A DNA stretch of 64,000 bases from a virus. A program made the position numbers and the translations under genes. Positions 5,278 to 62,057 of this stretch are shown here, one piece after another. The notes below the pieces were generated by a model. That model was not told where the DNA came from, made no database searches, and saw only the letters and a program-made list of their open reading frames with translations. Within the stretch, counting starts at the first letter, position 1, and each line of letters starts with the position of its first letter. The stretch lies in the IMG/VR virus record IMGVR_UViG_3300044799_000154, positions 57,518 to 121,517 of that record, one strand, 5' to 3'.

Positions 5278-5280
5278 TTT

Positions 5281-7057: not shown

Positions 7058-7058
7058 A

Positions 7059-10503: not shown

Positions 10504-10525
10504 AAGTATATAGGTGTGAATCAAG

Positions 10526-13033: not shown

Positions 13034-13037
13034 TAAA

Positions 13038-14471: not shown

Positions 14472-15544
14472 AAACAATTCTAATACTTGGTTCTTCTGGA
14501 CAAGCAGCTTTATCAGTGATTAAGTGTTTACGACTGGCTAACTTGAAAGAACTAAAGTATAGAATCATAACTGAAGATCTGGATCCTCTATTGCCTGGAG
14601 CTTATGTTGGAGATGTAGGATATATTAATGAGAAAGATAATGACAAATGGATTGCTGGAATCAATAGGATCATTGCTGAAGAGAAAATTGATTTGGTAGT
14701 TCCATGTCATGACATTCCAGTTGATATTGTATCTGAAAGACGAGATGAAATCAATGCTCCAATACTAGTTACTCAGAATGAAAAAATCAAAATAACTAGA
14801 GACAAATGGTTGTTCAACCAATGGCTCAAACTGAATGGTTATCCTGCACCAAAGACCTGGCTTGGATTACCAATAGTTCTACACTTTCCTGAGTTTGTTC
14901 CTTATCCAGTGATTATCAAGCCAAGAGGAGGATATGGAAGCAAAGATCAATATACAATAAATTCACAGGAAGAAATGGAAGCATTGAAGGATCTATTCAA
15001 AGCTAAAGAACTCAATGAGGAAGATTATATAACTCAAGAAAAGTTAGAAGGTACAGAACTTAGTGGTATGGCTTTGGTCTCAAAGGATGGAGAGATCTTG
15101 AGTATTACTTGTGCAGAATCAGTCAAGAAGTTTGGCATGTCATATAAGACAATACATGGAAGTGAACAAGATAATCTAGACTTCAAATTACTTGTTGCTA
15201 AGATAGTTGGACGAATGGGCATAACAGGTCCAGTTTCAGTTCAGGGTTTCCGCACTAGCAAGATCTGTGACGCTTGCACCGTTACTCCCTACGATAGTAT
15301 CAAACTGTTTGAGATCAATCCAAGGTTTACTGGTGCTCAGGTGGTTCGAGCTATGGGTGGAGTTAACGGACCAGAAGTGTTGATTGACAATTGGTTGGAA
15401 GGAACCAAAGTTTATCCAATTTGTAAGGAAAGAATAATAGCACTATGGGTGGCAGATTATGGATATATCTCAGAAAAAGATTATCTAGAACTGAAAGAGA
15501 AAAAGAAAATAGCTAGAAAAGCAAAGTTTACAAATTTGTTATAA
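14441..15544 (+). CDS. ATP-grasp ligase (type found in polysaccharide gene clusters)
   Basis: RDKW, IIKPRGGYGS, QEKLEG, FEINPRFTG; true start may be GTG at 14468. Confidence 0.88.
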   Translation: MESKGEETSVKTILILGSSGQAALSVIKCLRLANLKELKYRIITEDLDPLLPGAYVGDVGYINEKDNDKWIAGINRIIAEEKIDLVVPCHDIPVDIVSERRDEINAPILVTQNEKIKITRDKWLFNQWLKLNGYPAPKTWLGLPIVLHFPEFVPYPVIIKPRGGYGSKDQYTINSQEEMEALKDLFKAKELNEEDYITQEKLEGTELSGMALVSKDGEILSITCAESVKKFGMSYKTIHGSEQDNLDFKLLVAKIVGRMGITGPVSVQGFRTSKICDACTVTPYDSIKLFEINPRFTGAQVVRAMGGVNGPEVLIDNWLEGTKVYPICKERIIALWVADYGYISEKDYLELKEKKKIARKAKFTNLL

Positions 15545-44394: not shown

Positions 44395-45477
44395 CTACAG
44401 AGCTTTGTTAGCATCGAATTGGCAGTCATAGACGATGGCAATGCAATCAGCATTCACAACTTTCGGAGCAAACTCAAAGTAGAAGTAAAGTTCTACTGCG
44501 TCTGATCTTGGGTTGTCCCATCTCTTGAGATCTACATTCCTCTTGATTACGAGGTATGCAGCTCTTGTACTGTCAACACAGAATACTACACCAGCAGGAA
44601 TGTTTGTAGTTGCCAACAGCTTCATTGCACCAACCTTGCCAACTTCACCAGTCAACAGAGGTTCAGCAGATCCATACTGACTTGCGTCAATGAATCTAGC
44701 ATCCTTGATCAAATCAGCCATCTCTTCAGGGTTCAATACCATGAAGTTAGGTGACCATTTGTGACTTCGGATGAAAGTGCCCATAGCTGTAATGTCTTCA
44801 TACTTTAGAATCTTATCAGTTGTAGAATCAATTGCTCCTCTTGCAGTTCCAGCTACAGTATACCAGTACTTGAAGTGAAGATTATCTCCACCCAGGTTCT
44901 CGGCAATCTGTACTTTTCCAGCAAGGTAATCAACACCTTCTACTGTGACATTTGCAGCAGCATCATTCTTTGCTGTCAGCCATGTCAAAACTAATGGATG
45001 TGCTAAAGTATAAACATTGTGTGCAGCAGCACCCGCAATCACTTGAGTTACTTCAACTTTACCCAAGAATTCCCAGACTATTTCCTGGTCTTCTAGGTCA
45101 GCCAAAGCTTCACCCGCTTCTCGGATGTGGTCTCTTATCAGGTCAAACTCTGAAGCATCAAGTGCTTCTTGAGTCAACGCAGCATAAGACACAACCTTGA
45201 ATGGAGTGATTTCAATTGTGGTATATGCAGGTGATGTTCCATCGGCAAAAGCATTCAATTCAGTGCCTTCAGCCACACGAGCAGCAGACATGATTGTTCT
45301 CTTTGGAACATGGATAGATCGACCTTGCTTTCCAACAAGATCTGCATTTATCTTTACCAAAGCACGACCAAATCTACGAGCTCTTGCAGCCTCTTCTACC
45401 TCTGATATGATTATCTTTGGTAGGATTGCTGTAATGTCGCCTGTAGTCATCTTTGCTAGTTCTTCTAATGTTTTCAT
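44395..45477 (-). CDS. Major capsid protein (HK97 fold) with an inserted beta domain
   Basis: GRSIHVPK, VAEG, ITPFKV, FMVLNPE, GEVGKVGAMKL; GAGGAG RBS before ATG 45477. Confidence 0.9.
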   Translation of the reverse strand: MKTLEELAKMTTGDITAILPKIIISEVEEAARARRFGRALVKINADLVGKQGRSIHVPKRTIMSAARVAEGTELNAFADGTSPAYTTIEITPFKVVSYAALTQEALDASEFDLIRDHIREAGEALADLEDQEIVWEFLGKVEVTQVIAGAAAHNVYTLAHPLVLTWLTAKNDAAANVTVEGVDYLAGKVQIAENLGGDNLHFKYWYTVAGTARGAIDSTTDKILKYEDITAMGTFIRSHKWSPNFMVLNPEEMADLIKDARFIDASQYGSAEPLLTGEVGKVGAMKLLATTNIPAGVVFCVDSTRAAYLVIKRNVDLKRWDNPRSDAVELYFYFEFAPKVVNADCIAIVYDCQFDANKAL

Positions 45478-45527
45478 TTTTATTCTCCTCAATTTAATTT
45501 GAGTTCACTATAATAAAATAGGGTTAT

Positions 45528-45549: not shown

Positions 45550-45912
45550 TCACTCAGAGTCAGATTGATAGCTTCCAGGTTCCATTCTGGGACCTTTCTT
45601 AATGAGGTCATGTTCAATAGCTATTTTAACAGCTTCTCCAACAGATATCTTGCCTTTAAGATCTTCTGGATTGCTATAGCCAACTCGACTCTTGGGTTTG
45701 GGTCTTTCCTCGGTAGTTGCAGTCAACTGCTCGGGATTCTTACCCATCCTCAATACATTTTCAGAGAGAGTTGCATATCTCTCTTTCCATGAATTGAGTT
45801 CAGATCTGATAGATCCGAGTTCTATTTCTAGGGCAATCTTTTGATCTGTGAGTTCATCTAATTTCTTTGATAGAGCAATTATTCTTTTATCTGACTCAGA
45901 TTGTTCTGTCAT
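45550..45912 (-). CDS. Coiled-coil scaffold-like protein
   Basis: Heptad-rich N-terminal half; lies between the protease and capsid genes. Confidence 0.55.
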   Translation of the reverse strand: MTEQSESDKRIIALSKKLDELTDQKIALEIELGSIRSELNSWKERYATLSENVLRMGKNPEQLTATTEERPKPKSRVGYSNPEDLKGKISVGEAVKIAIEHDLIKKGPRMEPGSYQSDSE

Positions 45913-48080
45913 TGTTTTGACCTCTTGCTATCCAACCATTTCTCTAAGATAACCCGCTTGGCTTCTGGATGTTCTTTCAGAGCTTGTAGCAGTTGTTCCT
46001 CGGTCATAGGAACCTCTTTTGGAGCTTCTATGATCTTAGGCTCTTCAACCTTTGGTGCTTCAGCCTTAGGAGCTTCAACCTTAGGTTCCTCTTTTGGTAG
46101 TTCTCTAATACTTGGAACTATCACTATTGGAATCTCAAATGGTTTTTGCTCTACCTTAGGTTCCTCTTTAGGAGCTTCAACCTTAGGTACTTCTACCTTT
46201 GGCTCTTCCTTTGGAGCTTCGACCTTTGGTGCTTCAACAACCTTAGGTGCCTCTTCTTTAGGAGCTTCAACTTTTGGAGCTTCTACTTTGGGCTCTTCTT
46301 TCTTCACCTCAGCAACCTTGGGTTCTTCTTTCTTTTCCGACATTATTTCCTTTCCCTCCTTCAAATTTATACCATCTTTAGGTGGCATACCATATTCAGG
46401 TGACTGATCAGGTTTGGGTTTGTATTGACCATATTTTTCAACATGAGTGTCCATCCAATGTTTGTTGAAGATCACTTCATCAGTAAACTTCTCTCCACAT
46501 ACTGGACAAACTATTTGATCAGCAGCCTTCTCTTCTTTACCACCAGTCTTGACAAATTTCTTAGCCTCTGCTTGAGTATCAAAGACTTTAACTATTTTCC
46601 ACAAGCCTTCTTCAGGAACTTCGAAAACAGTGTATTTCTCAGTACCCTTATTAAAAACAACCTTTAGTACACCTTTCTTCAGGTCATCAGATTGCTTCTC
46701 ATATTTCGGGTAATAAGGATAGTATGGGTAATAAGGATAATATTGTTCACCATAGTATGGATAATACCCATAACCTTGCTTTTCAGCAGGAGTGTACTTT
46801 CCATATTTCTCCATGTGATCCTTACTCCAATGCTTTATGAAGTCTTTGAAGTTTGAGAACTTAGCACCACATGCTTTACACACGATACTATCTTCCATCT
46901 CTTCAAAAGGATCCTCATCAGATTTCTTCTCGGGCTTGGGATAAGCTTTGTATTTCTTATACTTATATGGATAATATCCATATGGAGAATATGCATACTT
47001 GTATCCTTTGAGTTTCTTAGTGCTCTCAGGAAGTTTACACATTCTTCTAAGATCATCCAATTCAGCCTCTGATTGTAATGGAACCTCTTCAAGATATTCT
47101 CCTTCTTCAACTAGAGCTACAACAAATGGAATGTCAGACTGAGCTACTGGTTTCTTATATTTCTTGTATTTGTAAGGATAGTAACCAGGGTAATTACCAT
47201 AACCATAATGTGGGTAATAACCATAGCCATAATATGGATAACCATCTAGTTTAGGATAACCATAATAGTATCCATAGACTTTCTTATTCTTTCTAAGTTC
47301 TTCCAATTGCTCTTCAGAACTTAATTCCATGAGCTCTAGATCTTCATTGTCTTCTACCCAAGCAAGGATAATTGGTCCTTCCTCTTCAGAGATTTCTAGG
47401 TTAGGAGCAGAGTTTTCTTCTTTTTCCATTTTATTTTCGCCTACTATACTTTCTTTCTTTTCTACTTTTAAATCTTTCTCCATTCTTGATAATTTCTCGC
47501 AATGGAATATAAAACAGCGATCACAGGCAGGATTTGATACTAATGAGAGTTCAGCAAACTTGAAATCAAGACCCATTTTGATTCCCTCTTGACCAATTGG
47601 AATCTTATCCATCCAAGTAGACATAGATACAGCTTTGAACCTACCTGCATTAACATAATCAATAGCTTTTTGATCTGTTAATCTAGCCTTAAATTTCAAA
47701 GCTTTAAGAAGTTCATCCCATAGAGCTTCTATGACTTCTCCAACAGTTCGATCTCCAAATTCTTTATCTTGACCATGTTCGATCTTTAAAGGTTTACCAA
47801 TTAGTTGATCAGCAGCTTTCTTGATCTCTTCTGAAGAATAAACAACATTCTTCCAGATACCTTCAGCTAAAGCAACACCAGTAACTAAAAGACCTTTATC
47901 TTCAAGAACAGTAAAAAAATCAAAAGCTAGTTCTTCTTGGACAGATTCAGGCTTAACAGTGTTCTTAAGATTCTCTATCTCAAGTTTCCTAGCCTGGAGA
48001 TCTTGTTCTAATTGTTCAATCTCAGCTTCCAAGATTTCCTGGATGCCTGATTGATCTTCGATAGTTTCCATTTTCTTCAC
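45909..48080 (-). CDS. Prohead protease fused to Tyr/Gly/Pro repeats, two C2H2 fingers and an EAPK repeat tail
   Basis: GKPLKIEH, AVSMS, FAELSLVSNPAC protease motifs in about the first 195 aa. Confidence 0.85.
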   Translation of the reverse strand: MKKMETIEDQSGIQEILEAEIEQLEQDLQARKLEIENLKNTVKPESVQEELAFDFFTVLEDKGLLVTGVALAEGIWKNVVYSSEEIKKAADQLIGKPLKIEHGQDKEFGDRTVGEVIEALWDELLKALKFKARLTDQKAIDYVNAGRFKAVSMSTWMDKIPIGQEGIKMGLDFKFAELSLVSNPACDRCFIFHCEKLSRMEKDLKVEKKESIVGENKMEKEENSAPNLEISEEEGPIILAWVEDNEDLELMELSSEEQLEELRKNKKVYGYYYGYPKLDGYPYYGYGYYPHYGYGNYPGYYPYKYKKYKKPVAQSDIPFVVALVEEGEYLEEVPLQSEAELDDLRRMCKLPESTKKLKGYKYAYSPYGYYPYKYKKYKAYPKPEKKSDEDPFEEMEDSIVCKACGAKFSNFKDFIKHWSKDHMEKYGKYTPAEKQGYGYYPYYGEQYYPYYPYYPYYPKYEKQSDDLKKGVLKVVFNKGTEKYTVFEVPEEGLWKIVKVFDTQAEAKKFVKTGGKEEKAADQIVCPVCGEKFTDEVIFNKHWMDTHVEKYGQYKPKPDQSPEYGMPPKDGINLKEGKEIMSEKKEEPKVAEVKKEEPKVEAPKVEAPKEEAPKVVEAPKVEAPKEEPKVEVPKVEAPKEEPKVEQKPFEIPIVIVPSIRELPKEEPKVEAPKAEAPKVEEPKIIEAPKEVPMTEEQLLQALKEHPEAKRVILEKWLDSKRSKQ
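46015..46330 (-). repeat. Coding tandem repeats (EEPKV/EAPKV/EAPK)
   Basis: Degenerate 12-15 nt units such as TTAGGAGCTTCAACC on the plus strand. Confidence 0.85.
47465..47478 (-). promoter_or_regulatory. Internal BRE-TATA-like motif within the protease gene
   Basis: GAAAGATTTAAAAG, 36 nt upstream of the in-frame ATG 47429. Confidence 0.45.
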
Positions 48081-50248: not shown

Positions 50249-52447
50249 TTAATCTTTTCCTTTCTTTATCATTTCTTGAGTCCATGTATGAAGGTTATTA
50301 TCTTTGATCCATTTGGTAGCAGTCTCTATTGGAGCATCACCTTTAAACTTAACTTGGGATACTCTTGCCCAATGGAAAGTACCTGGCTTTGGATATAGAC
50401 ATACAAGGATATCTTCCACATAATCTGGAATGCTAAGATCTGGGAAGTAAGTTTTATAATCAGACTCACATCTAGTGAATGTCCTCATGTCATAAAGATG
50501 AAGCCAATAGTAATCCCATCCTTTCTTCTGTCCTTGAATGAATGGATCATAATAGTCTCCTTTGACTGGGTCTCCACTTAAAGTCTGAGCTTCAGGTAAT
50601 TTAGATTTTATAAAGAACCAATCTCCTTCAGGGGATTTTTTCAGGACCCAGTATCCTTTTATTTTGTCTCCATAGAGTTTCATTGACATGAATCCACCAG
50701 TTTGCTCAATGATATCTATCTTACCATGATCTAAGACATCAACAAAAGTTTCCAAAGATCCTACCTTTCTAGGAAGCTTTTGTCCTTCGGTCATAAACCA
50801 ATCTTTGGGATTATTACATGTCTTTAGAAGTCCTGGTATCGGGTCTCCAGTATTAGCTTCAAGAGGATTCTTCCATAGGTTCCATTCTACTAGAACTTTG
50901 GGATTCTCAGTTATCTTCACTCTAATATCCCAATGTTGTTTATTATCCCAATAATGTCGATGAAGTACAAACTCTCCAGATGCTAGAGAACTTTGTTCTT
51001 TAGCTTTCCAAGAATACATGTTTGCTCCTTTCTCTTCTTGGATTAAATCATAGTTTCCTTTCATGATCTTACCATGAAGCTTCAAATGATAGATCTTTCT
51101 ATTCTGATCATCAGTTTCTAGTTCAACAGTAGCAGAACCAGAATCAAAGTTCCTCATTGTAGCAATCAATGTCTTCGTTGGATTATACATTTCTCCTGGA
51201 TGTATCTTACCTTCCCATGTCATCCATTTCTTATTCACTTTGCCTTCATACATTGCTCCTAGTTCATTAACTCTAGCTGGATCACCATCCAGATACCAGG
51301 AGTCTACTCCAGTAGTTTGAAGACGGAAAAAGAACTCTACATGAGGTACTGCTCTAACAACTACTTGTCCCATATAAGTATTAACTTGAAGATTGAATTT
51401 AGCACCAGCTAATGGATTTACAGGTTCTTTCATTTCAAAATCTTCACATGCTGGTTCTTCAATAGATAGATCTTTGATACAATGCATACAATGAATACAT
51501 TCTTCACATGTAAAATCATCTAAGATCTCACCTGTTTTTCTAGCAATCACAGCACAATAAGCGGATGCTCTCTTTTCATCCCAACCTTTCTTTTCCATGA
51601 TCTGTTTTACACAATCTTTGAAATTCTTATAACCAGCAAATGGAAGTCCTTCTAATTCTCTAAGACTTTCTTTAGTTAGACTCTTACCTTCCATGTATGC
51701 TTGCCATTTATCCCAGAGTTCTCCAGATCTCTGATCAGGTGGAATTGGAATAACACCTTTTGGAGGTTTCCAACCTTTCTTTATTCCTCGTTGTAAAGCA
51801 TAAGCTATTTGGTTGCCAGGAATCATGCATTTCCACATGTATTCTGTTTGACCCTTAATTGGTTTCTTAGTGACTGGATCTATCTTAGGGACTTGAACTC
51901 CTCTGAAGACAACACGAGCCCATTTACCTTTTGGAAGGAAGTTACCTACGTCAGTCTTCAGGAAGTATTCATGGAAATAAGATTTCTGAGTTCCTTCCCA
52001 GAACACGCCATGCTCAATAATGTCTACCACTCCAGTCTCTTCTTTAGTAGCTCCTACCTCTCCAGGCTTAACTACACCATTAACTTTCAACCATTCTTTT
52101 GGCTGTCTAGCTTTTGTTTCTGCTCTCAATCCTTTATTCTTCTTTGTGAAATCAAAAGCCCAATCCAATTTCTTTATCTGAGCTTCAGCTTCAGGCATAG
52201 TTGTTACCTCAGGAGTTCCAGAAGGATTATCTAAGATCGTCCATCCAACAAGGTGATTATTCATTTCCATTCTGAAATCTTTGTGAACAGAAGCTCCTCT
52301 CCAATGATGCTGCATGACAAATCTTCGTTTACATCCTGAAGGAGGATATTCCATGTATTGAGAGACACCTGTAACTTGTAATTCTTCCTGGAATATTCCT
52401 AGTTCTTCTAAGAACTTAGGATCAATCATTTCACGAGTTATTTTCAT
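50249..52447 (-). CDS. Protein with three LigD 3'-phosphoesterase (PE)-like domains and small head-protein-type domains
   Basis: FVMQHHWRGASVHKDFRME and FVLHRHYWDNKQHWDIRV match the PE motif FVxQxH...HxDxRxE; the middle copy is degenerate; LHGKIMKGNY and LYGDKIKGYW are PE C-terminal motifs. Confidence 0.75.
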   Translation of the reverse strand: MKITREMIDPKFLEELGIFQEELQVTGVSQYMEYPPSGCKRRFVMQHHWRGASVHKDFRMEMNNHLVGWTILDNPSGTPEVTTMPEAEAQIKKLDWAFDFTKKNKGLRAETKARQPKEWLKVNGVVKPGEVGATKEETGVVDIIEHGVFWEGTQKSYFHEYFLKTDVGNFLPKGKWARVVFRGVQVPKIDPVTKKPIKGQTEYMWKCMIPGNQIAYALQRGIKKGWKPPKGVIPIPPDQRSGELWDKWQAYMEGKSLTKESLRELEGLPFAGYKNFKDCVKQIMEKKGWDEKRASAYCAVIARKTGEILDDFTCEECIHCMHCIKDLSIEEPACEDFEMKEPVNPLAGAKFNLQVNTYMGQVVVRAVPHVEFFFRLQTTGVDSWYLDGDPARVNELGAMYEGKVNKKWMTWEGKIHPGEMYNPTKTLIATMRNFDSGSATVELETDDQNRKIYHLKLHGKIMKGNYDLIQEEKGANMYSWKAKEQSSLASGEFVLHRHYWDNKQHWDIRVKITENPKVLVEWNLWKNPLEANTGDPIPGLLKTCNNPKDWFMTEGQKLPRKVGSLETFVDVLDHGKIDIIEQTGGFMSMKLYGDKIKGYWVLKKSPEGDWFFIKSKLPEAQTLSGDPVKGDYYDPFIQGQKKGWDYYWLHLYDMRTFTRCESDYKTYFPDLSIPDYVEDILVCLYPKPGTFHWARVSQVKFKGDAPIETATKWIKDNNLHTWTQEMIKKGKD

Positions 52448-52449
52448 AA

Positions 52450-55398
52450 TTATTCACCTATCTTCTTACAGGGACATTCTTCATCCCTTTGTGTCTCTTC
52501 ATCAGTTTCTGGATCAACCAAGTAGTCGTAATAGTAAGGCTTGACATATCTACATTTCCAGTAATAAGCTAATGAACAAGCAACTGGGAATTTAAGATAC
52601 ATTCTCTTAGATAAATCATCCATGGTTCTAGCAAATCTAGGTTTCATAGGGCATACTTTTAGATCCTCATAAAATGGACATGTTGGAAGTTGGACTACTT
52701 CTTCAGCTAGAGTACTCAATGGAGCAGTTCCTGCTACTATTAATTTCTTAACTACATCCAACCCATCAGGTTCACTCTTGTTTGGATTTCTAGCTTTGAC
52801 AGTTGGAAACATCCATGTCCAATAAATTCTTCCTTTCTCTTCGAATTGAGCAACTCTAATTGGTCTAATTGCTAGGATATCTCCCTTTCCACATTTGACA
52901 GCAGAAGCATAACTTCTTCCAATAAGATAATAACATTTTCCTTTCCATTCTTTGAAGCCATCTTCTTTGATCTTATCTTTCATTCCACAAGGAACAGAGA
53001 TAACACAATCATACATATATTGCCCTGGAATAATCTGACCTGTTTTTGACTCTTTCTTAGGAATAACTTCCCAGACCATTACATCAATTTCTTTGACATT
53101 CTTTATCTTAGCCCAATCAGTAGTTCTACCAGTCAACTTGTAGATAGAATCTGCTTGCTTGAGCATTGCTCCTTCAGAACCTCTGATCCTTCTGACCTTA
53201 GCTAGAGTTCTATCAAACTCTCTCTTATCATGAACCTCATAACCTGGAACTGCTTTGAAATGATATGTTCCTGATGGAATTATTTTATCAACAGCAGTTA
53301 ATCTCTCAGTATATCCTTTCTGAGTCATATCTTGCCCATCATACATCATACAATCATGAACATGGAAAACAATATCTTCATCATCAAGCTTCATTTTTGT
53401 AGAAGTAATCCAAGGAATCATTTCTTCTCTTGGACGAGGTTGACAGAAAGCTTCTTTATCTTTAGTATCTTTACCTTGACAATTATACCAGACCATCTCA
53501 GTATCAATAATGAAATTATCAGCTTTGAAATGCTTAACCAATTCTTCTACTGATTTCTTAAAGACATCTGCTCGATCTCTCTGTCTATCTTCTGTAAAGA
53601 ACCAGATCTTGTCTCCCTTTCTATGGATTTGAATTCTCATACCATCAAATTTCTTCTGCATCACTATACCTTTCTCAATTCTAGATGCAGCCCAATTATT
53701 CCACAATGGAACTGGATCAAAGAATTCAAATTTGTCAAATCCTGTACCTGATTTCAAAGATCTAATAGGTTTTCCCAAAGCTATATCGGAAAGATATTCC
53801 CAAGGAGAATGTTTACCCCATTCATTTGGAGGCACTCTAACATAAGCTAATCTGTAGATAGGCATTGAATATCCTACCTGTGGACCATGAGGATCAAAGA
53901 CCCAGTGAATCCTATTTGCAACTTCAGGATCTCTTGCTCGAATTGCAGTAGTTAAAGCGGTCATCAATCTCTTATCTGGAAATGATTGTTTTACCAATAC
54001 ATCTATGTCATGACCTGGTTGAGAAAGATCTTTATTAACAGTGCTTCCACAAACATGAATATGAGCTGGAGGGTCCATAAGAATGATCTGCTCTGGAAAT
54101 GCACTTAGAATTCTAAGAACTGGAAGATCTTGGAAATTAGCAGGAATGTTTTCATCAACTTTATCTTTAGAAGCAAATCCTCTTGGTGTTGGATATTCTA
54201 CTACATCTAAAGCTGTAGCATCTGTCAATGGATCTTCAATGGTATGACGAATATTTCTATGCACCATTTCTGACCAAACAAAGATATGAGCATTGCTTAA
54301 AGGCTCAGTAATCTTACTCTGTTCTCGATAGATAGCATGAAGTCGTTTATCCAAAGATACAAGATCTTTGTCACTAAGTTTTCTAGAATAAATATCATCT
54401 ATTGCTTCAAGATCTTTGAACTCTATCTTTGAGACATCTATCAATAGTTCTTCCTCAATTGAAGAAAGAGTTTCAAAGAATTCTTCAAAAGTAGCTTCAC
54501 CTTCAACATTACTCAATGAACTCGATTCTTTCAAAGGAGTATAATTCCAGCCCATCTTCTTGAAAGCTTCAAGAATGTTGTTATCAAGTCCTTTTACTAT
54601 TTTTTTCTGCTCTTCTAGAGTATAATCTTTGAATTGTGGACTCATCATTCTTTTACCAGATTGGAGAAGATTCCACCAAGCATGAACTATTCTATGATCA
54701 TCCAAGACTACTTTCCTTCCACGAGGAGTCTTTATCAATTCCATTGCATCATAAGTCTTCCAATCTCTAATCAAGAATTCCTCTATTCTATCCAAGAAGT
54801 CTAAATAAGGATGTGTCATATTTCTATCTGAAAATTCTTTAGTTATTAGAGCATGAAGTTCTGTATCTCTGACTAAATGAGAATGAGCATGAAGTCTTAA
54901 AATTGCTCCCATTGGAAGTTCCTTCATTTTCTCAAATTTGATATTCTTAGCATCTATCCAATTCTGTGTTCCCTTTGGAAGAGTAACTACAGTGGGAGGT
55001 TTAAATCGTTCTACCATCTTGACAGGATAAAAATATAGTGGACCTTTACACCAGGCTTTGTAAACTTTGCACCATTTCTCTCTTGTCTTCTCTGAGATTC
55101 TGTGCTTGGGCTCTAATTGATGAAAATCTTTTATTGAGATTTCTATAGGTTCTCCTATACGCATAGTTCCATAACACAATCCATGTCCCAAGAGATAAAC
55201 AGGTTCATCTGGATTTACATCATATTTCTTTGACTTACAAAAAGCGGTCTTAAATCCTGTAGATATCCAGTGAGCATGAGGCTCTATCAAATACAAACCA
55301 GTCCTCGGAGCAGTCTCTACTTTCTTGATAAAAATCTTTGGAACAATTGGTTGAATATCAACAGTTGTAATAGCTGTATTATTTTCTTTCTCTGGCAT
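52450..55398 (-). CDS. ASCH + His-rich repeats + Pol-beta-like nucleotidyltransferase + ATP-dependent ligase fusion
   Basis: LYLIEPHAHWISTGFKT (ASCH); VCGS...HDIDVLV (NTase); ligase motifs KKFDGMR, IIDTE, FHVHD, EGAMLK, WAKIK. Confidence 0.85.
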   Translation of the reverse strand: MPEKENNTAITTVDIQPIVPKIFIKKVETAPRTGLYLIEPHAHWISTGFKTAFCKSKKYDVNPDEPVYLLGHGLCYGTMRIGEPIEISIKDFHQLEPKHRISEKTREKWCKVYKAWCKGPLYFYPVKMVERFKPPTVVTLPKGTQNWIDAKNIKFEKMKELPMGAILRLHAHSHLVRDTELHALITKEFSDRNMTHPYLDFLDRIEEFLIRDWKTYDAMELIKTPRGRKVVLDDHRIVHAWWNLLQSGKRMMSPQFKDYTLEEQKKIVKGLDNNILEAFKKMGWNYTPLKESSSLSNVEGEATFEEFFETLSSIEEELLIDVSKIEFKDLEAIDDIYSRKLSDKDLVSLDKRLHAIYREQSKITEPLSNAHIFVWSEMVHRNIRHTIEDPLTDATALDVVEYPTPRGFASKDKVDENIPANFQDLPVLRILSAFPEQIILMDPPAHIHVCGSTVNKDLSQPGHDIDVLVKQSFPDKRLMTALTTAIRARDPEVANRIHWVFDPHGPQVGYSMPIYRLAYVRVPPNEWGKHSPWEYLSDIALGKPIRSLKSGTGFDKFEFFDPVPLWNNWAASRIEKGIVMQKKFDGMRIQIHRKGDKIWFFTEDRQRDRADVFKKSVEELVKHFKADNFIIDTEMVWYNCQGKDTKDKEAFCQPRPREEMIPWITSTKMKLDDEDIVFHVHDCMMYDGQDMTQKGYTERLTAVDKIIPSGTYHFKAVPGYEVHDKREFDRTLAKVRRIRGSEGAMLKQADSIYKLTGRTTDWAKIKNVKEIDVMVWEVIPKKESKTGQIIPGQYMYDCVISVPCGMKDKIKEDGFKEWKGKCYYLIGRSYASAVKCGKGDILAIRPIRVAQFEEKGRIYWTWMFPTVKARNPNKSEPDGLDVVKKLIVAGTAPLSTLAEEVVQLPTCPFYEDLKVCPMKPRFARTMDDLSKRMYLKFPVACSLAYYWKCRYVKPYYYDYLVDPETDEETQRDEECPCKKIGE

Positions 55399-55409
55399 TA
55401 AAGTTCACT

Positions 55410-55796
55410 TCACGAAATATACTGTTTGCCACCGTTCTTGCTTGGTTGCTTATCAGCTTCTTTCTCTTTCTCTTTCTTTCTAGAAGCTATTTCTGCTTCC
55501 TTATGTTCTTTCAATTTCTTGGTCCATTTAACATCAAATTCTAGAAATTCAACAGACATCTTTCTAATTTCTTCAGCAATCTCAGTTAATTCTTTCTCAT
55601 CAAAAAGCTTCATGATAGATGGATGTTGTAACCAAGAACTCCATCCCATTGTTGATGCATTAACAGCAGTAATAGCTTCCTCAATCAAGGAAACTAAATC
55701 TAGACGATCTCCTAGCTTCTTATCTTTCAAATGCTTAATGATAACTTCTGATTTCTTAATATAATCATCTACTGGAGATTCTTCTGACATTATCAC
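55410..55796 (-). CDS. DUF2153-like archaeal protein
   Basis: DRLDLV...GWSSWLQHPSIMKLFDEKEL...FLEFD pattern; GGTG RBS. Confidence 0.65.
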   Translation of the reverse strand: MIMSEESPVDDYIKKSEVIIKHLKDKKLGDRLDLVSLIEEAITAVNASTMGWSSWLQHPSIMKLFDEKELTEIAEEIRKMSVEFLEFDVKWTKKLKEHKEAEIASRKKEKEKEADKQPSKNGGKQYIS

Positions 55797-55834
55797 ACCT
55801 ACTTATATTAGATCATATACTCCTTAAAAAAGAT

Positions 55835-56266
55835 TTAGGAAAGGAGGACCTTAAGATAATCATTGCTATCTCTTCCAAGATACTCTATAGCTTTTTCTAA
55901 GATTAGAATTGAATCTCCAGATAGACCTATCATGAAATTACATTTATTGCAAAGAAGACCTCTAATTTTCTTAGTTTCATGGTTATGGTCTATAGATGGT
56001 TCTTTAAAAGGTTTAAATTTCTCATTGCAAATAGCACATCTATTATCTTGAAGTTCAAGCATAGAATCATAATCTTCCTTAGTAATATTATAAGGCTTCA
56101 ATCTTTGAACATTCTTCCAATATTTTCTTTGATATTCATTTATTGCGTCTTTTCTTTCAGCTCTCTTTTTCATAATTTCTTCCTTGTGTTCCTTGAAGCG
56201 TATTTTAGCTTGAAGAAGCTTATGTTCTCTGTGGTCTTGATAATATTCTGATTCACTTCTAACCAT
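55835..56266 (-). CDS. Endonuclease VII-family (His-Me finger) protein
   Basis: QDNRCAIC, IDHNH, IRGLLCNKCN. Confidence 0.88.
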   Translation of the reverse strand: MVRSESEYYQDHREHKLLQAKIRFKEHKEEIMKKRAERKDAINEYQRKYWKNVQRLKPYNITKEDYDSMLELQDNRCAICNEKFKPFKEPSIDHNHETKKIRGLLCNKCNFMIGLSGDSILILEKAIEYLGRDSNDYLKVLLS

Positions 56267-56283
56267 TTAATTTCCTCCAAAAT

Positions 56284-58458
56284 TTATTGAAGAAGCACTC
56301 GAAGATAATCATCCAAAGTCTTCCCTGGTCTCACGACCACTTTAAAGTCTGTGGGCTCTATTGAAAATTGATAGTTTTTATCAGGAATCACTACTTCCTT
56401 GAAGTTCCAACTTTCAGCAGCTTTGATTTTCTCATATAATCCACCAACAGCAGTGATCTCTATCTCATTATCTGAAGATATATTTATCTCTCCAGTCACA
56501 GCAACATCTTGTCTAATTGGTTTCTTCTCTAACAGAGAACACAAAGCAAGAGTCATTGTAACACCAGCAGAGGGACCATCTACTGCATAAGACTGAGAAA
56601 AGTCTATGTGAGTACAATAATCTTTAGATACATCTGCACCATATTTCTTCAGGATTACAGATCTTACCTTAGATATTGACCCAGGCATGTATAAAGCATC
56701 TTTTGGAACACCAGTTACTTTGAAATATCCGCAGTCTTTCTTAGCTTTTATCATTTGTGCTTTTATTCTTAAGACTGATCCGACAGATTCTCCTGAGAGT
56801 GGATCGGAAGATACTGCCAAACCATAGATTACTCCTAATTTCTTTCCAGATGGTTTAATCTCCAAGAACTTGTTTTCTTCCTGGATATAGTTCTCCAAGA
56901 TTTGTTTCTGAATGGTCTTACAATGTTCCTCGATAGCTTCCCTTACACGCTTACCAGATACTTCTGTCTCTCCTGCATTCATAGCCAAGACAGATGCTGT
57001 TTTTAGGATTGATATCAAAGGTCTGAACTTAGCTGTTAAAGTGTCTCTTTTATCAGACTTTCTTCTAGCTTCTTCAATCACTTCAATGCAAGCATCTCTT
57101 GTGAAGGGCATTAGATTGAATCTATTAATTTCCTGAGCAATGAATTGGACATACTTTCTTCTGCTTTCATCCGTATTTGGAAAATCATTGTTCATTCTAA
57201 CTACTTTTCCATATCCATAGATACGATCCATCAAAGCAGGATGTATCTGACAAATAGAATCAAAGTTTCCTGCTCCTACAAGAAAAGTAACACATGGAAT
57301 TGGTTCAGTAGATACAGCCATTGCAGAAGTATCTCCACCATGAAGTTGAGATCTTAGAGCAATTGGTAGTTGACCATCTTCTAAAACTGATAACAAAGTT
57401 ATTGCCTCGGCTGGCATCAAGTTCTTCAATTCATCTATGTATAGAATTCCCAGATTAGCTCTATGAACATCTCCAGCAGATACTCTTTGATGTTCTGGAG
57501 TTCCAAGTCCACCTGTCTGATATGGATCCCAAGCTATTGATCCAAAGAGTTGTGAAGAACCATGTCCAGTTGCATCAATGAACTGAGCTATTTGTTGAGA
57601 GTTATCAATCAACATCTTAGGAGCATCAGTATTCTCTGAACCACCGATTCCTTTCATTCCACCCTGGGATCCCAAAAACTTAAATAGATAACTTATGAAG
57701 ATACTTGAGAATAACAAAGATCCTCCAGCCATTAACAAGAAAGCAGTATCTGGTAATGCAGCCATAAAGTACTGGAAGAAGTTTCCATCGTATAAAATTT
57801 GAAGAGGAACACCATATCCTGTCATTTGATTGGTAGCCCAAGGCATGGTAATAGTATACAAAGCACAGAAGAGTAATAGGAGTCCCAATCCAGCACACAA
57901 CCATTTAACTGAACTAATTCCCAAGCTTTTCTTCCAAGCTTGTCTCTCTACTTTCTGTCTCTCTTTTATAACAAAATCTTTTCCTTTTGGTGATGGATGT
58001 ATTGAGATTCTAGGTTCACTAGGAATTGTCTTATTTTTCCAAGATAGAACATCATACATCTTTACATTGTTTTCTCTATAAAGGTCAGTAAGTTTCTCAG
58101 CAAGAGCTCTACCTATCAGAGACTTTCCTGTTCCTGGATCACCTAGCAAGAATAAATAAGGACCAGGGGAAAGTTTCTTCTTAACTGTTGGCTTAACATT
58201 CTCTGGATTCTCCCAATCCTTCCACCAATGATCTTTATCTAAGTTCTTGAGTTTGTGTACCCATTCATCAAGACATAAGTAACATTCTTTCATTGCCTGG
58301 TCTTGACCTATGACCCAGTCTAGAAGTTTAGTAGAAAGAGGGAATCCTTCAGTAGAATGAAAATCTTTCCAATCCCATTCTACTTCTGGACAATTAGCCC
58401 ACTTTATCTTTGACTTTCCTTTGCCGAAGTATTTTTCTTTTCTTTCTTGTTCAGACAT
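56284..58458 (-). CDS. lonB: Archaeal LonB-type membrane-anchored ATP-dependent protease
   Basis: VIGQD, Walker A GDPGTGKS, two transmembrane segments inside the AAA+ domain, GGLGTPEHQRV, YIDE, catalytic DGPSAG and EKIKAA. Confidence 0.93.
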   Translation of the reverse strand: MSEQERKEKYFGKGKSKIKWANCPEVEWDWKDFHSTEGFPLSTKLLDWVIGQDQAMKECYLCLDEWVHKLKNLDKDHWWKDWENPENVKPTVKKKLSPGPYLFLLGDPGTGKSLIGRALAEKLTDLYRENNVKMYDVLSWKNKTIPSEPRISIHPSPKGKDFVIKERQKVERQAWKKSLGISSVKWLCAGLGLLLLFCALYTITMPWATNQMTGYGVPLQILYDGNFFQYFMAALPDTAFLLMAGGSLLFSSIFISYLFKFLGSQGGMKGIGGSENTDAPKMLIDNSQQIAQFIDATGHGSSQLFGSIAWDPYQTGGLGTPEHQRVSAGDVHRANLGILYIDELKNLMPAEAITLLSVLEDGQLPIALRSQLHGGDTSAMAVSTEPIPCVTFLVGAGNFDSICQIHPALMDRIYGYGKVVRMNNDFPNTDESRRKYVQFIAQEINRFNLMPFTRDACIEVIEEARRKSDKRDTLTAKFRPLISILKTASVLAMNAGETEVSGKRVREAIEEHCKTIQKQILENYIQEENKFLEIKPSGKKLGVIYGLAVSSDPLSGESVGSVLRIKAQMIKAKKDCGYFKVTGVPKDALYMPGSISKVRSVILKKYGADVSKDYCTHIDFSQSYAVDGPSAGVTMTLALCSLLEKKPIRQDVAVTGEINISSDNEIEITAVGGLYEKIKAAESWNFKEVVIPDKNYQFSIEPTDFKVVVRPGKTLDDYLRVLLQ

Positions 58459-59858
58459 TCTAATCCTTCCTCTTTACTTAATCCCTCTTTTGTTTTGGGA
58501 CAATTCTGACAATACTTGAATAGTTCACTCAAAGGTATGTTCTTTTCTTTTCTTATTGGACACTCAATATCTTCTTGATAAACACAATTGATGGCTTGTA
58601 CTTTGTCCTTACTCTCATCTTCTAAGAGTGGCAAACCAAGTTCTCCTCTCAATTTGTTTTCCAAAGACCTATCCACATGGAGAACTCCTTTCTCAGTTAG
58701 CATTGAGATTGATCTCATTCTAAGCATCTGAGTCTCAGGAGAAGATTCTCCAAACTCTACCTCTGGAATGCTTTGTAGTTTTTTCTGGATTCTCACTTCG
58801 GCTAGGAGTTGTTCATCCAGTTCAGCTTTAATTTCCTCTGTGTACATCTTAGCTGCTTTTTCAAAATCAATATTAGAAAATGTTGCACCACCTTTGCTCT
58901 CTGTGGATCCCGATGGTACTATGAATCCAACTGGATTATCCAATGCTCTAGCTATTTCTCCTGCTAAGAAAGCCCATAGATCAACTATAGGTGCCAAAGG
59001 AGTCTTGCTTTCTAATCTTCCTGGTTTTATCCAGACAGGAAGTATAAGTTCCTCAGCACTCTCTAAGTTCTTGAGAATTTTCTTTGCTTCAGCGATCAAA
59101 GGTGCATCAATAGGATGATTTAAATCACCAATGTTGAAGTATATAATTGGAAATCCATGTCTATACAGAGCTTCTCCATAAGCCTCTTCCAAGTTCATTC
59201 TAATCCAGGATGCCTTGAACGCAGGTTCTAATGGAGATATTCCTAGGCATTCAACTCCCAAAGTAAAGAAGTTCATTAGAACTACATCTTTCATTGGAAG
59301 ATCAATGCTATCACTATTTACTGTTTGTACCAATCCAACAGGGTTCAAATTGTCATCTAACAATATTTTTCCATCTCTATCTTTCTGCCAATCCACAGTC
59401 TTTGGATCTACAATGACAAGCTGAACTATGTTACCCTTTGAATCTCGGACCTTTTCAATAACAGAATATCCATAAATGATAATATCCAAAATAGCTTCCC
59501 AAAGTACTTTCTTCAAGTTCACAGTTCGAGCCCAAGCTTCCATAGCAGTACGATCTTGCTCAACTCCACCTGAGAAGTAAACTCTTGGAGAAGCTATAGC
59601 TCTCCTAAGACGGTTTACACCAGCGAAGATGAGTGGATCCATTCTATAAAGAAGCTCTGCTTTCTTTTGAACTTGAGTTTCTTTCTTTAATCTCTCAGTA
59701 TCTCCCTTACTCTTCCTAGTTCTAGTAATTGCCACTAGGTCTGACAATGACAATTCAACTTTTTCAGGTGGGATGTCACTTGGTCTGCTTCGTCTCAAAG
59801 CATCATAAAGTTTTCTTACTCTAGATCTTGAATCATCTTTTGGTGCTTCATTAGTCAT
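58404..59858 (-). CDS. Portal protein with a C-terminal Cys4 motif
   Basis: IIIYGYSVIE, VDPKTV, LGISPLEPA, LRGELGLP; first large gene of the head operon. Confidence 0.85.
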   Translation of the reverse strand: MTNEAPKDDSRSRVRKLYDALRRSRPSDIPPEKVELSLSDLVAITRTRKSKGDTERLKKETQVQKKAELLYRMDPLIFAGVNRLRRAIASPRVYFSGGVEQDRTAMEAWARTVNLKKVLWEAILDIIIYGYSVIEKVRDSKGNIVQLVIVDPKTVDWQKDRDGKILLDDNLNPVGLVQTVNSDSIDLPMKDVVLMNFFTLGVECLGISPLEPAFKASWIRMNLEEAYGEALYRHGFPIIYFNIGDLNHPIDAPLIAEAKKILKNLESAEELILPVWIKPGRLESKTPLAPIVDLWAFLAGEIARALDNPVGFIVPSGSTESKGGATFSNIDFEKAAKMYTEEIKAELDEQLLAEVRIQKKLQSIPEVEFGESSPETQMLRMRSISMLTEKGVLHVDRSLENKLRGELGLPLLEDESKDKVQAINCVYQEDIECPIRKEKNIPLSELFKYCQNCPKTKEGLSKEEGLECLNKKEKKNTSAKESQR

Positions 59859-60054
59859 AATGTTTCTCCCCTGCTATAATGTGTCTCCTGAATGAAGAGT
59901 AGGAAAGATTGTATGCTTCATTCTTTGTTTCTTGGTATTTCTGTCTAGCCATTCTCTGAAGTTGTCTCAAAGATCTTGACTCTTTGAACAATTCATCGTG
60001 GAATGCTGGATCTAAGTCTTTCAATTGACAAACTTTACATCTAGGTTCCATCAA
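59851..60054 (-). CDS. Small Zn-binding HTH protein (terminase small subunit-like)
   Basis: CKVC...SLRQL...SYSSFRRH. Confidence 0.55.
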   Translation of the reverse strand: MMEPRCKVCQLKDLDPAFHDELFKESRSLRQLQRMARQKYQETKNEAYNLSYSSFRRHIIAGEKHYD

Positions 60055-60185
60055 GATTCCTCCTTAGGTATCTTGTCATCTAGATCCATTTTAATTAATT
60101 CCCTGAGTCTAGCAGAAGCTGATTTATGTTTCTTGATAAATTCTGCCCACATTTCTTCATCTACTACAAAGGATCTAGTTTTCAT
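60051..60185 (-). CDS. Ribbon-helix-helix transcriptional regulator (44 aa, not in ORF track)
   Basis: MKTRSFVVDEEMWAEF...SASARLRELIK: alternating strand followed by two helices; GAGG RBS. Confidence 0.7.
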   Translation of the reverse strand: MKTRSFVVDEEMWAEFIKKHKSASARLRELIKMDLDDKIPKEES

Positions 60186-60440
60186 ATTTCTTCCTCTCTT
60201 TATGATAGTTATTTAACCTATCTAACATACATAAGGTATTTAACATATATAAGCTTATCGGTATGATTCTACCGAGAGGGAAAATATCTAAATAAGTATT
60301 AAAGTGTTTCATTGTTTCAGGTTCGGCAATATAACCATAGGGACCCAAGTTTCGGATCGCCCTTTCCCTACCTACGGGTGTACCTGGATATTCTTCCCTG
60401 GATATAGGAAAGTATAAGAAAGAGGAGACACTAAAGATAG

Positions 60441-62057
60441 ATGAGGAATAAGATGCCAAGAGTACCTCAAGTGGAAATAGCAGAAGCTCAATGGACTAGA
60501 TGGACCCACCTGAACTTCTTTTTTGAAGATCTTACTAGAACTAACGTCTTTCCAAAGCAGAAACAATTCTTTGACTTTGTAGAAGACATTGATAATGAAG
60601 ATCATATCTGTTTGTGTGCTGGAAGAGGTTGTGGTAAAACATGGTCTCTTGCAGTTGTAGCCTTATGGTGTGCTTTCGTCCTAGCTCATGTTCAAAATGA
60701 ACCAATAGCAGTAGCTGTATTAGCGGGCTCAAAAGATGAATCTCAAAGATTATTTACTTACATACGGAGGATTCTAAAAGGTCACAAGGAACTTGATCAG
60801 TATATATCTGAGAACTTAAAAGGTGGTCTAAGATTCACCAAAGATTATATTGAGTTTAAAGATGGATCAACAATAGAAGCTCTTGCTTGTTCTATGACTG
60901 GAGTATGTGGTCCTCGTGCCAATCTTCTGATTATAGATGAAGCTGGTCTAGAAGAGTTCAAGGAAGATGTGAAAAATGAATCCTTTGAAATTATCACTGG
61001 TCAGAAATGGGGAAGAATTATTATGGCTTCAACTCCATATTACTATAGATCTCCTTTCGTCAATATCTATCTAGCTAACCAAGGTTGGAGAAAAGTCAAT
61101 TGGTCTCAAGAAGATTGTCCATGGATCAAGAAAACTGAGATAGAAAGAAAGAAAAAAGATTATACTGAAGTTGAGTTCAAAATTAGAATTCAAGGAATAC
61201 CAACTCCTCAAGAAGGAAAGATGTTTGAACCAGCAAAACTTAGAACTGTACTTAAAGATCCAACTGAGATACATTATTCAGATTATTCAAGAATCATTGC
61301 TGGTCTAGATTTTGGACAAAATATTTCACAGACTGCTCTTGTCATTATAGATATAAATCCAGTGGATAAGAAGGTCCGTGTTGTAAACTCCTGGTTATTT
61401 TCCACTCCAGACCATTCAGAAATTATTCCATCAATAGTTCAACTATTGACTCAGAATCAGGTTACAAAACTAGTTATGGATATTCAGCCTCCTAGTGCTT
61501 GTGCAATGATGAAGAAAGCTTTACTTCATATTAATGTTGAAGTTAGAGAACAGTCTTTTACTCATGGACGAGGAGATGCAATGTATCATAATCTGAAGAG
61601 ATTAATAGAGAAAGACTTGATTGAAATTCCACATGTCTATACTGGTCAGATGAATACATTAGCTGAACAACTTAGAGAAATGCAGTGGGAGAAAGATCCC
61701 AAAGTAAGAACTGACTTGGTAGATGCACTAGCTCTTGCTTGCTCTGAAGAAGGTGGATATGAAGTCTTTCGTGAAGAAGAGACTAAAAATACAATGAAAG
61801 ATCAGATGAAAGCCTGGACAGATGCAATGAAAACTTCTAAAGATATCAAGGTTGTCCCAGATGAATATACTCAGCCAGAAGTAGAGGAAGAACCATTTGA
61901 TTATCCAAAGGAATTACAAGGAAATCCAGAGGATAAGATTTTCTGGGAAGATCCTAACTTTGGAGATATGAGAATAATGTCTAAGGCTGAAGCACGAGCA
62001 ATCTATAAGAAAGGGACAAAACATAAGCTTGCTGGTCCAAGAGGTGAACGCATGTGA
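60441..62057 (+). CDS. terL: Terminase large subunit
   Basis: Walker A AGRGCGKT, Walker B LIIDEA, coupling motif ASTP, nuclease AGLDFG and DLVDALALA. Confidence 0.93.
   Translation: MRNKMPRVPQVEIAEAQWTRWTHLNFFFEDLTRTNVFPKQKQFFDFVEDIDNEDHICLCAGRGCGKTWSLAVVALWCAFVLAHVQNEPIAVAVLAGSKDESQRLFTYIRRILKGHKELDQYISENLKGGLRFTKDYIEFKDGSTIEALACSMTGVCGPRANLLIIDEAGLEEFKEDVKNESFEIITGQKWGRIIMASTPYYYRSPFVNIYLANQGWRKVNWSQEDCPWIKKTEIERKKKDYTEVEFKIRIQGIPTPQEGKMFEPAKLRTVLKDPTEIHYSDYSRIIAGLDFGQNISQTALVIIDINPVDKKVRVVNSWLFSTPDHSEIIPSIVQLLTQNQVTKLVMDIQPPSACAMMKKALLHINVEVREQSFTHGRGDAMYHNLKRLIEKDLIEIPHVYTGQMNTLAEQLREMQWEKDPKVRTDLVDALALACSEEGGYEVFREEETKNTMKDQMKAWTDAMKTSKDIKVVPDEYTQPEVEEEPFDYPKELQGNPEDKIFWEDPNFGDMRIMSKAEARAIYKKGTKHKLAGPRGERM

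Follow-up and report, generated by a model that had tools for sequence, protein, structure and literature searches.

A LonB-type protease gene beside the portal gene in a clade of large tailed viruses with Bathyarchaeia as probable hosts

Introduction

In archaea, the main ATP-dependent protease bound to the membrane is LonB. It forms a membrane ring that pulls proteins into a chamber facing the cytoplasm, where a Ser/Lys pair cleaves them. Phages are known to carry host-derived proteostasis genes, such as ClpP- and S49-type proteases and chaperonins, and Lon domains are also found in defence proteins of the BrxL type and similar ones. Here we describe a LonB gene in a 64,000-nucleotide stretch of viral DNA (positions 57,518 to 121,517 of the IMG/VR record IMGVR_UViG_3300044799_000154), referred to below as the window. 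The source record is a linear viral contig of 121,517 bp with a CheckV completeness estimate of 92%, and the window is its right-hand 64 kb. The gene, called Lon in the following text, directly follows the gene of the portal protein. We propose that a clade of large (~90–156 kb) head-tailed viruses took LonB from its hosts long ago and has inherited it vertically ever since, in a position immediately after the portal gene and in most cases overlapping with it.

A full-length viral LonB is apparently unreported, as far as our searches show. Among 50,697 deposited phage records there is no full-length Lon match (none covers 80%), and the best match has 56% coverage and 25–27% identity. PHROGs contains one Lon-matching family, of unknown function, which corresponds to the protease domain only. 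Literature searches, which covered article texts but not supplementary gene tables (for example Table S4 of PMC10848311), returned no description of a Lon–portal linkage or of a Lon gene of an archaeal virus. The linkage pointed out in an earlier note on this stretch has therefore not already been described, as far as the literature searches show. The whole word "Lon" is absent from the searched text of PMC5434244, PMC10160649, PMC11706807, PMC10848311, PMC13465236 and PMC7824862, and in the searched text of PMC11953307 it occurs in the reference list only. The published families of Bathyarchaeia viruses comprise smaller or different viruses, and the searched main text of that paper contains neither "Lon" nor "protease".

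The Lon protein and its motifs

The Lon gene, its motifs and the portal gene occupy the following positions:

58404–59858, minus strand: portal gene (Pfam Portal_Mu 37.4 bits, cut-off 23.9; PHROG portal families)
56284–58458, minus strand: LonB-type AAA+ protease (P0001, 724 residues), assigned from Pfam, NCBIfam, motifs and a PDB match
58120–58143, minus strand: Walker A motif GDPGTGKS, residues 106–113, present as GxxGTGKS in 17 of 17 viral copies
57634–57948, minus strand: hydrophobic membrane insert, residues 171–275, with two helices predicted from hydropathy; a variable mosaic segment
57421–57450, minus strand: Walker B motif GILYIDELKN (core ILYIDE), residues 337–346, from motif reading
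56557–56583, minus strand: catalytic serine motif VDGPSAGVT with Ser630; GPSAG in 17 of 17 viral copies
56413–56445, minus strand: catalytic lysine motif GGLYEKIKAAE with Lys677, which is invariant in Lon alignment A1 and in 17 of 17 viral copies

The portal and Lon ORFs (open reading frames) share positions 58404–58458, 55 nt in which the end of the portal ORF runs over the start of the Lon ORF. A purine-rich stretch lies ahead of the Lon ATG. The first residues of the Lon N-terminus are kept in viral and cellular relatives, which makes the Lon start and the 55-nt overlap credible. The Pfam scan of Lon identified Lon_C (PF05362) at 75.4 bits (cut-off 21.1) and LonB_AAA-LID (PF20436) at 38.4 bits (cut-off 22.4), and the NCBIfam LonB model TIGR00764 matches Lon with an E-value of 6e-113 and 378.4 bits. 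The best solved relative is PDB 3k1j (E 7e-88), the LonB of Thermococcus onnurineus; it aligns with residues 279–723, and Walker A is aligned too. About 95 residues precede Walker A, and no LON N-domain family was found in the Pfam scan, so that Lon is without the N-terminal substrate domain of the LonA type. The features that define LonB, namely the Walker A/B module, the hydrophobic insert, the LonB LID, and the S16 domain with its Ser–Lys dyad, are all present. All of the 17 viral copies contain both Walker motifs, the AGN and DR motifs, and the catalytic serine (GPSAG) and lysine (EKI). In alignment A1, the two Walker motifs are invariant or nearly so, and Ser630, like Lys677, is invariant. 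As read from its sequence, ORF 56284–58458 encodes a complete, membrane-type LonB AAA+ protease with intact catalytic motifs. The earlier note had claimed a complete LonB with Walker motifs, a membrane insert and a Ser–Lys dyad, overlapping the portal gene by 55 nt; the Pfam scores and motif positions bear out the former, and the shared positions the latter.

The Kyte–Doolittle profile of Lon contains hydrophobic segments at residues 178–209 and 237–259, between Walker A and Walker B. All 17 viral copies have at least one hydrophobic segment between the two motifs, as given by hydropathy rather than by a topology predictor. Lon is 86% identical to that of the relative L003, and the ratio of non-synonymous to synonymous substitution rates (dN/dS) between them is 0.19 overall and 0.09–0.12 outside the insert; the alignment indicates that the viral Lon is under purifying selection. 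The insert is only 46% identical to that of L003, against 87–95% in the rest of the protein, and its dS of 1.75 is about four-fold higher than the value of ~0.4 in the flanks. In the contig of a relative from sediment, the insert is swapped for 318 other letters. The insert is the least conserved part of the cellular Lon proteins as well. Judged by these comparisons, it behaves as a recombining mosaic segment and not as a site of simple positive selection.

The portal–Lon junction in independent samples

A single 60-kb contig from a peat run that is a possible source of the record covers positions 55300–60100. Another peat run, which comes from a different study and sample, contains identical contigs over this stretch, and its 927-nt contig spanning 58199–59125 bridges the portal/Lon overlap with 0 differences. 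Groundwater and freshwater sediment runs hold relatives that are 90–95% alike, and in a 19-kb contig of the sediment relative Lon runs into the portal gene. Lon also occurs on three complete relatives with terminal repeats. Two of them (G126 and G130) also carry the large terminase subunit (TerL) within the flank covered, and in the third (G129) Lon lies by an MCM helicase gene. The GC content is even over the window (0.33–0.40).

The gene is of an obviously cellular type, and its record is a linear contig from a metagenome, as would be expected if the assembly were chimeric or a cellular fragment had been mislabelled as viral. The probability of such an artefact is nevertheless negligible. 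It is refuted by the independent run that bridges the junction, the uniform GC content, the same arrangement on many contigs from other samples, including complete genomes with terminal repeats, and the viral hallmark genes (TerL, portal, protease, capsid and tail genes) carried by the same window. The check for a chimera at the junction, which the earlier note had called for, thus came out in favour of a genuine arrangement.

Distribution, phylogeny and probable hosts

A search of IMG/VR with the Lon alignment identified 22 viral contigs with a Lon relative, at 32–84% identity. A portal homologue (35–95% identity) is located directly upstream of Lon, on the same strand, in 12 of them. Five contigs have a gene upstream of Lon that resembles the one for the 732-residue protein of the window (p732-like), and three show the order DUF2153, Lon, then TerL on the other strand, then a capsid gene. 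An MCM helicase gene is upstream of Lon in one contig, and one more (L024) encodes a very different LonB (32% identity) by TerL. One further contig with the portal-then-Lon order (L086) sits in a "Haiyanarchaeum" metagenome-assembled genome. The reverse search of IMG/VR with the portal alignment returned exactly the same 12 contigs, with Lon beside the portal in 12 of 12. In JGI metagenomes, 43 portal relatives were found, 30 of which have Lon just downstream; among those with at least 900 nt downstream of the portal the count is 25 of 34. These numbers are not independent of the IMG/VR ones, because several metagenome contigs are the same records. Of the nine relatives without Lon among these 34, three have the most distant portals (30–31% identity), and the other six are discussed below. 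The portal and Lon ORFs overlap by 8–68 nt in nine of the 11 loci with a full Lon ORF. A survey of viral databases, as proposed in the earlier note, therefore gives a divided answer: the Lon–portal linkage is common within this virus clade, but it is not universal there.

The nearest cellular Lon proteins are annotated as S16 family serine protease or AAA family ATPase of Bathyarchaeia; they match at full length with 57–62% identity and come from Bathyarchaeia contigs of up to 2.2 Mb. Among the best 80 genome matches to Lon, 78 are titled Bathyarchaeia, -ota or -ales, in agreement with the suggestion of the earlier note that Lon can serve as a host-prediction marker. In an even sample of 121 genomes across the phylum of one of these chromosomes, a close Lon homologue was present in only four, and a few others have a Lon paralogue at 25–27% identity. 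The hosts of the viruses are probably Bathyarchaeia, as suggested by the kinship of this gene.

In the phylogeny of 102 Lon sequences, the clade of the Bathyarchaeia type falls into three parts: 75 cellular sequences, 13 viral ones including that of the window, and three viral ones that are sister to six cellular ones. The near-copy L012 and the partial Lons L006, L010, L013, L016, L022, L023, L085 and L105 were dropped from this tree. The viral copies branch deep, in groups placed basally in the radiation of the Bathyarchaeia Lons, which is the outcome of the phylogeny with cellular LonB that the earlier note had proposed. Their branch lengths are 0.3–0.55, compared with a cellular median of 0.09. 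The placement of all viral Lons in one clade gave a p-value of 0.064 in the approximately unbiased test (p-AU), on a reduced set of 50 rows, made up of 16 viral, 31 of the 81 cellular and three outgroup sequences. A portal tree shows the same three virus groups as the Lon tree, which fits vertical descent of the portal–Lon pair. On a portal tree calculated from 36 loci and the window after dropping L151 (equal to L150) and the partial portals L158, L161, L166, L167, L169 and L170, the presence and absence of Lon amounts to four changes. If the tree is rooted on the four most distant portals, which is an assumption, these are one gain and three small losses. On the evidence of these trees, the viral Lon came from a host long ago, was inherited vertically and disappeared from a few relatives. 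Recent capture of Lon as an auxiliary host gene does not fit the cellular identity of at most 62%, the deep branches, and the gain-then-loss pattern on the portal tree.

Several Lon-bearing contigs deserve comment. Contig L086 is binned as "Candidatus Haiyanarchaeum thermophilum"; it contains TerL, portal and Lon and is evidently viral, which makes a binning error likely. A binning error is also likely for contig L067, which is binned as "Sulfotelmatobacter" and carries a Bathyarchaeia-type Lon. In the relative L017, an MCM helicase gene adjoins Lon. The LonB of L024 (9854–12229), which is 32% identical and located by TerL on a 107-kb viral contig, has relatives named Bathyarchaeia and Caldarchaeum; another tailed virus of archaea may here have acquired LonB on its own. 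Hint/LAGLIDADG Pfam domains occur in relatives of the Lon type found in L024 (P0288, P0291). Contigs Ga0114930_10000030 and Ga0315274_10000054 extend beyond their trimmed proviral records. In L150/L151 (~4831–7857) Lon is interrupted: residues 1–181, 277–311 and 307–723 are matched piecewise, and the last two pieces are ~0.9 kb apart. The interruption may be an intein or another insertion.

The late gene string and the capsid maturation protease

From ~60.3 to 23.4 kb of the window, every sizeable ORF is on the minus strand and the gaps are very short. Features of this late string other than portal and Lon, and those next to it, are:

60441–62057, plus strand: TerL (Pfam Terminase_6N 27.3 bits; PHROG 2, E 1e-24), divergent from the late string
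60220–60300, minus strand: AT-rich promoter-like stretch upstream of the late string, a candidate recognised by eye
60051–60185, minus strand: 44-residue ORF, which heads the late string just past the AT-rich stretch
between the 44-residue ORF and the portal gene, minus strand: 67-residue ORF, from ORF calling
55835–56266, minus strand: Endonuclease VII (EndoVII)-family gene (Pfam Endonuclease_7 77.1 bits, cut-off 23.6; PHROG endonuclease VII families, E 1e-31)
55410–55790/55796, minus strand: DUF2153 (PF09921) gene (Pfam 36.6 bits, cut-off 23)
52450–55398, minus strand: 982-residue protein with an ATP-dependent DNA ligase domain (Pfam DNA_ligase_A_M 95.6 bits; PHROG 114)
50249–52447, minus strand: 732-residue protein with a short LigD_N (3'-phosphoesterase) match (Pfam 37.5 bits, partial)
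between the 732- and 723-residue proteins, minus strand: ORFs of 632 and 81 residues, from ORF calling
45909–48080, minus strand: 723-residue protein with an N-terminal prohead protease domain (fold matches, invariant His and Ser)
45550–45912, minus strand: 120-residue coiled-coil-like protein, a possible scaffold (weak coiled-coil-type Pfam hits; it precedes the capsid gene)
44395–45492, minus strand: HK97-type major capsid protein (PHROG 267, E 4e-14; Pfam Phage_capsid_4 28.7 and Phage_capsid 27.4 bits), followed by tail genes

The order portal, Lon, EndoVII and DUF2153 is as claimed in the earlier note, according to the ORF calls, and the gaps between Lon, EndoVII, DUF2153 and the next gene are 17 nt, 38–44 nt and 11 nt. 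A non-structural block composed of Lon, EndoVII, DUF2153, the ligase-domain protein and others separates the portal gene from the protease, scaffold and capsid genes located ~8 kb further on. The term "capsid operon" used in the earlier note is therefore correct in that Lon belongs to one co-directional, tightly packed string with the portal gene; it is not a pure capsid operon, because the non-structural block intervenes. The 44-residue ORF (60051–60185, minus strand) resembles, by eye, a small DNA-binding protein, and this assignment is putative. No tRNA genes were identified in positions 1–64000 of the window by ARAGORN.

The usual place of the prohead protease gene in tailed viruses is right after the portal gene, which is the position occupied here by Lon. 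The prohead protease models PF04586, PF03420 and PF00574 have no matches in the genome at E≤1, and PF04586 has none in five related viral genomes. The N-terminal domain of ORF 45909–48080 (approximately residues 10–310) has 498 relatives, and His102 and Ser152 are invariant across 40 aligned ones. The AlphaFold (AF2) model of this ORF has a mean confidence score (pLDDT) of 75.8, with a core above 90. Its top match in PDB is the Epstein–Barr virus protease (1o6e_A, E 3e-4, probability 1.00), and in BFVD it matches 188 viral models at E≤0.001, where every named one is a prohead or head maturation protease. According to the model, the N-terminal domain is a capsid maturation protease with the assemblin fold. 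The site of Lon and the silence of the sequence models would be accounted for if Lon replaced the capsid maturation protease. Such a replacement is very improbable given the invariant His102/Ser152 pair, the structural matches, and the location of ORF 45909–48080 directly ahead of the scaffold-like and capsid genes; with a prohead protease recognisable at the fold level, Lon as its substitute was rejected. The prohead protease thus escapes the Pfam and PHROG sequence models and is clear by its fold and invariant residues. It is fused to a C2H2/zinc-ribbon-like region (~395–550), and the C-terminal domain of the same ORF (~575–690) recurs in much larger proteins.

Possible functions of the viral Lon

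Based on the position, conservation and age of the gene, a role of Lon can be proposed. The place of Lon in the late string and its usual overlap with the portal gene suggest that it is probably made together with the portal, at the time when structural proteins are mass-produced. Because every known LonB feature is intact and under constraint, the viral Lon should act like LonB, and its ring at the cytoplasmic face of the host membrane would unfold and degrade proteins as the cellular enzyme does. A late supply of Lon controlled by the virus may then provide quality control, or remove surplus, misassembled or unwanted proteins. With moderate confidence, we favour this reading, in which the virus owns a membrane Lon for proteolysis or quality control in the late phase. 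The age and constraint of Lon imply that it pays its way, whereas its loss in three small lineages, together with the differing neighbours elsewhere, indicates that it is helpful but not indispensable for building virions.

Several observations weigh against this reading. Six of the nine Lon-less JGI relatives have a glycosyltransferase gene directly after the portal gene and no Lon there, and this is the gene that follows Lon in other members. Lon is therefore dispensable for some members of the clade, and its position by the portal gene may be only historical. The other Lon-bearing viral contigs have differing neighbours, namely MCM, a transglutaminase-like gene or a p732-like gene. The Lon of the window (378.4 bits) does not reach the TIGR00764 equivalog cut-off of 516.6 bits. 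Since two cellular Bathyarchaeia homologues (396 and 407 bits) also remain under the cut-off, as do two further viral copies (385 bits), the shortfall is a trait of the Bathyarchaeia LonB lineage and not of the virus. Furthermore, the assignment of the host comes from gene kinship only.

The main rival, which we consider unlikely, is the targeted takeover of the host, in which Lon, instead of serving general quality control, is redirected to destroy particular host proteins: defence proteins, regulators, or membrane proteins of the surface such as receptors, the last leading to superinfection exclusion. Long retention under purifying selection, the long viral branches and the fast-changing mosaic insert are in line with such a function. 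So is the loss of this accessory gene in some relatives, since genes involved in conflicts are often accessory and lost in some relatives. However, Lon does not differ from the cellular proteins in any known functional loop or motif, the insert varies in cellular proteins too, and the takeover reading is without a candidate target. PADLOC identified no Lon-type defence match in Lon, and its sole hit was a 19.9-bit P-loop match to mad8.

Roles linked to assembly and egress are less likely than takeover. Lon directly follows the portal gene on the same strand in 13 loci, with portal identity down to ~35%, both genes lie in the late string, and the ORF overlap in most loci with a full Lon suggests coupled translation. 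These observations would suit a morphogenetic partner of the portal, a membrane ring that works physically with it and nucleates, checks or releases procapsids at the membrane, or removes the scaffold protein. Such a partnership is improbable, because six close portal relatives have no Lon at the site, Lon lies apart from any recognisable portal gene in three further groups of viruses, and a prohead protease with the canonical fold and a scaffold-like gene are present. Slightly less probable still is the specific arrangement in which the six-fold LonB ring docks the twelve-fold portal, so that procapsids are started, checked or released at the membrane and the overlap of the genes reflects coupled production; were it true, Lon would assist virus assembly as a protease-chaperone instead of acting as a housekeeping enzyme. 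We regard it as similarly doubtful that Lon times lysis or egress as a late membrane protease that degrades membrane or envelope-anchoring proteins and thereby frees the virions. The position in the late string and the membrane insert would agree with this, and no holin or endolysin family was found among the proteins scanned, which cover part of the genome only. The protease chamber of LonB, however, faces the cytoplasm in the solved LonB structure, and Lon was lost in some relatives.

Neighbouring genes

The EndoVII gene is found in none of the related loci examined, and contigs of relatives join position 55852 straight to 56302 without it. The last eight residues encoded by the EndoVII gene, DYLKVLLS, are the C-terminus of the Lon of L003, whereas the Lon of the window ends in DYLRVLLQ. 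The matching C-termini imply that EndoVII landed inside the 3' end of Lon, brought a replacement Lon end, and uses the old end as its own. From this pattern in the sequence, EndoVII (55835–56302 region) is a strain-specific mobile insertion into the Lon 3' end. An insertion that replaces the end of its target gene is typical of a free-standing homing-type endonuclease.

The likelier start of DUF2153 is the ATG at 55790, which gives 126 residues. Its AF2 model is a three-helix bundle (pLDDT 88), for which PDB holds nothing at E≤0.001 (best E 2). The tail of the protein is Lys-rich and ends in Y-I-S, conserved as Y-[IV]-[SA] in relatives (alignment A2), which carry PF09921. DUF2153 is listed as COG4755/arCOG04123, a family of unknown function (PMC9425974). 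DUF2153 is present in four of five related Lon-bearing viral genomes and in the flanks of nine viral loci. It directly follows Lon only in the subgroup of the window (L003, L004, L020), and it is immediately upstream of the ligase-domain gene in L003, L009, L020 and L021 and 249 nt before it in L004. DUF2153 is thus more constant beside the ligase-domain gene than beside Lon. The check proposed in the earlier note, whether Lon and DUF2153 are neighbours in candidate hosts, came out negative: they adjoin in one of 79 cellular loci (L100, with L105 being the same contig), PF09921 is present in two of five Bathyarchaeia genomes, and on the one complete chromosome that has both genes they are 0.55 Mb apart.

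Downstream of DUF2153, at 50249–55398, the ligase domain occupies residues 575–766 of the 982-residue protein, and the short LigD_N match is in the 732-residue protein. These two proteins and DUF2153 may together make up a module for DNA repair or end joining that lies amid the head genes. The window also contains a sugar-modification cluster (5860–15544) with four GT4 glycosyltransferase-like genes, a DegT/DnrJ aminotransferase, a NAD-dependent epimerase/dehydratase and an ATP-grasp enzyme. In relatives, a GT4 gene is located directly after Lon, or after the portal gene where Lon is missing.

Comparison with known systems

The viral Lon is a long-kept signature gene of a clade of large tailed viruses from peat, sediment, groundwater and other metagenomes rather than a stray pick-up. 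As a marker, it links these viruses to Bathyarchaeia, a major sediment lineage that is uncultured and for which few viruses are known. Sister viruses that differ in the presence of Lon, those without it being the L143, L144/L165 and L153/L154 lineages, offer a natural experiment on the benefit that a virus draws from a cellular protease of its own, and the viral Lons are soluble, testable proteins for finding LonB substrates. If Lon acts with the portal or in release, it bears on the assembly and exit of archaeal tailed viruses, which are poorly understood.

The prohead proteases of the HK97/herpesvirus-assemblin type share with Lon that they are serine proteases encoded in the head gene region after the portal gene. 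Their fold and family are unrelated to Lon, and the virus has its own in ORF 45909–48080. BrxL-type defence proteins resemble the viral Lon in the S16 Lon protease domain. The ClpP/S49-type proteases and chaperonins of phages are, like the viral Lon, cellular protein-handling machines in a virus, but the viral Lon is a full-length membrane LonB. The ATP-dependent protease Lon of PDB 3k1j has the same domain order and the insert between Walker A and Walker B; it is more distant, and the N-terminal segment and insert of the viral and Bathyarchaeia proteins are longer. The closest described proteins are the cellular Bathyarchaeia S16 family serine proteases (P0033, P0075; loci L025–L104). They are of the same class of ~730–760 residues and have the W-rich N-terminal segment, the Walker motifs, the two-helix insert, the LID and the Ser/Lys protease domain, and their TIGR00764 scores of 396–407 bits are similar to the 378–385 bits of the viral copies. 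The viral Lons differ from them in their location on viral genomes by the portal gene and in their longer branches. The Lon group of the window has in addition a six-residue deletion at the start of the protease domain and is without the C-terminal tail of some cellular proteins. The protein is an ordinary LonB of the Bathyarchaeia lineage, and what is new is its carrier and the stability with which it is carried.

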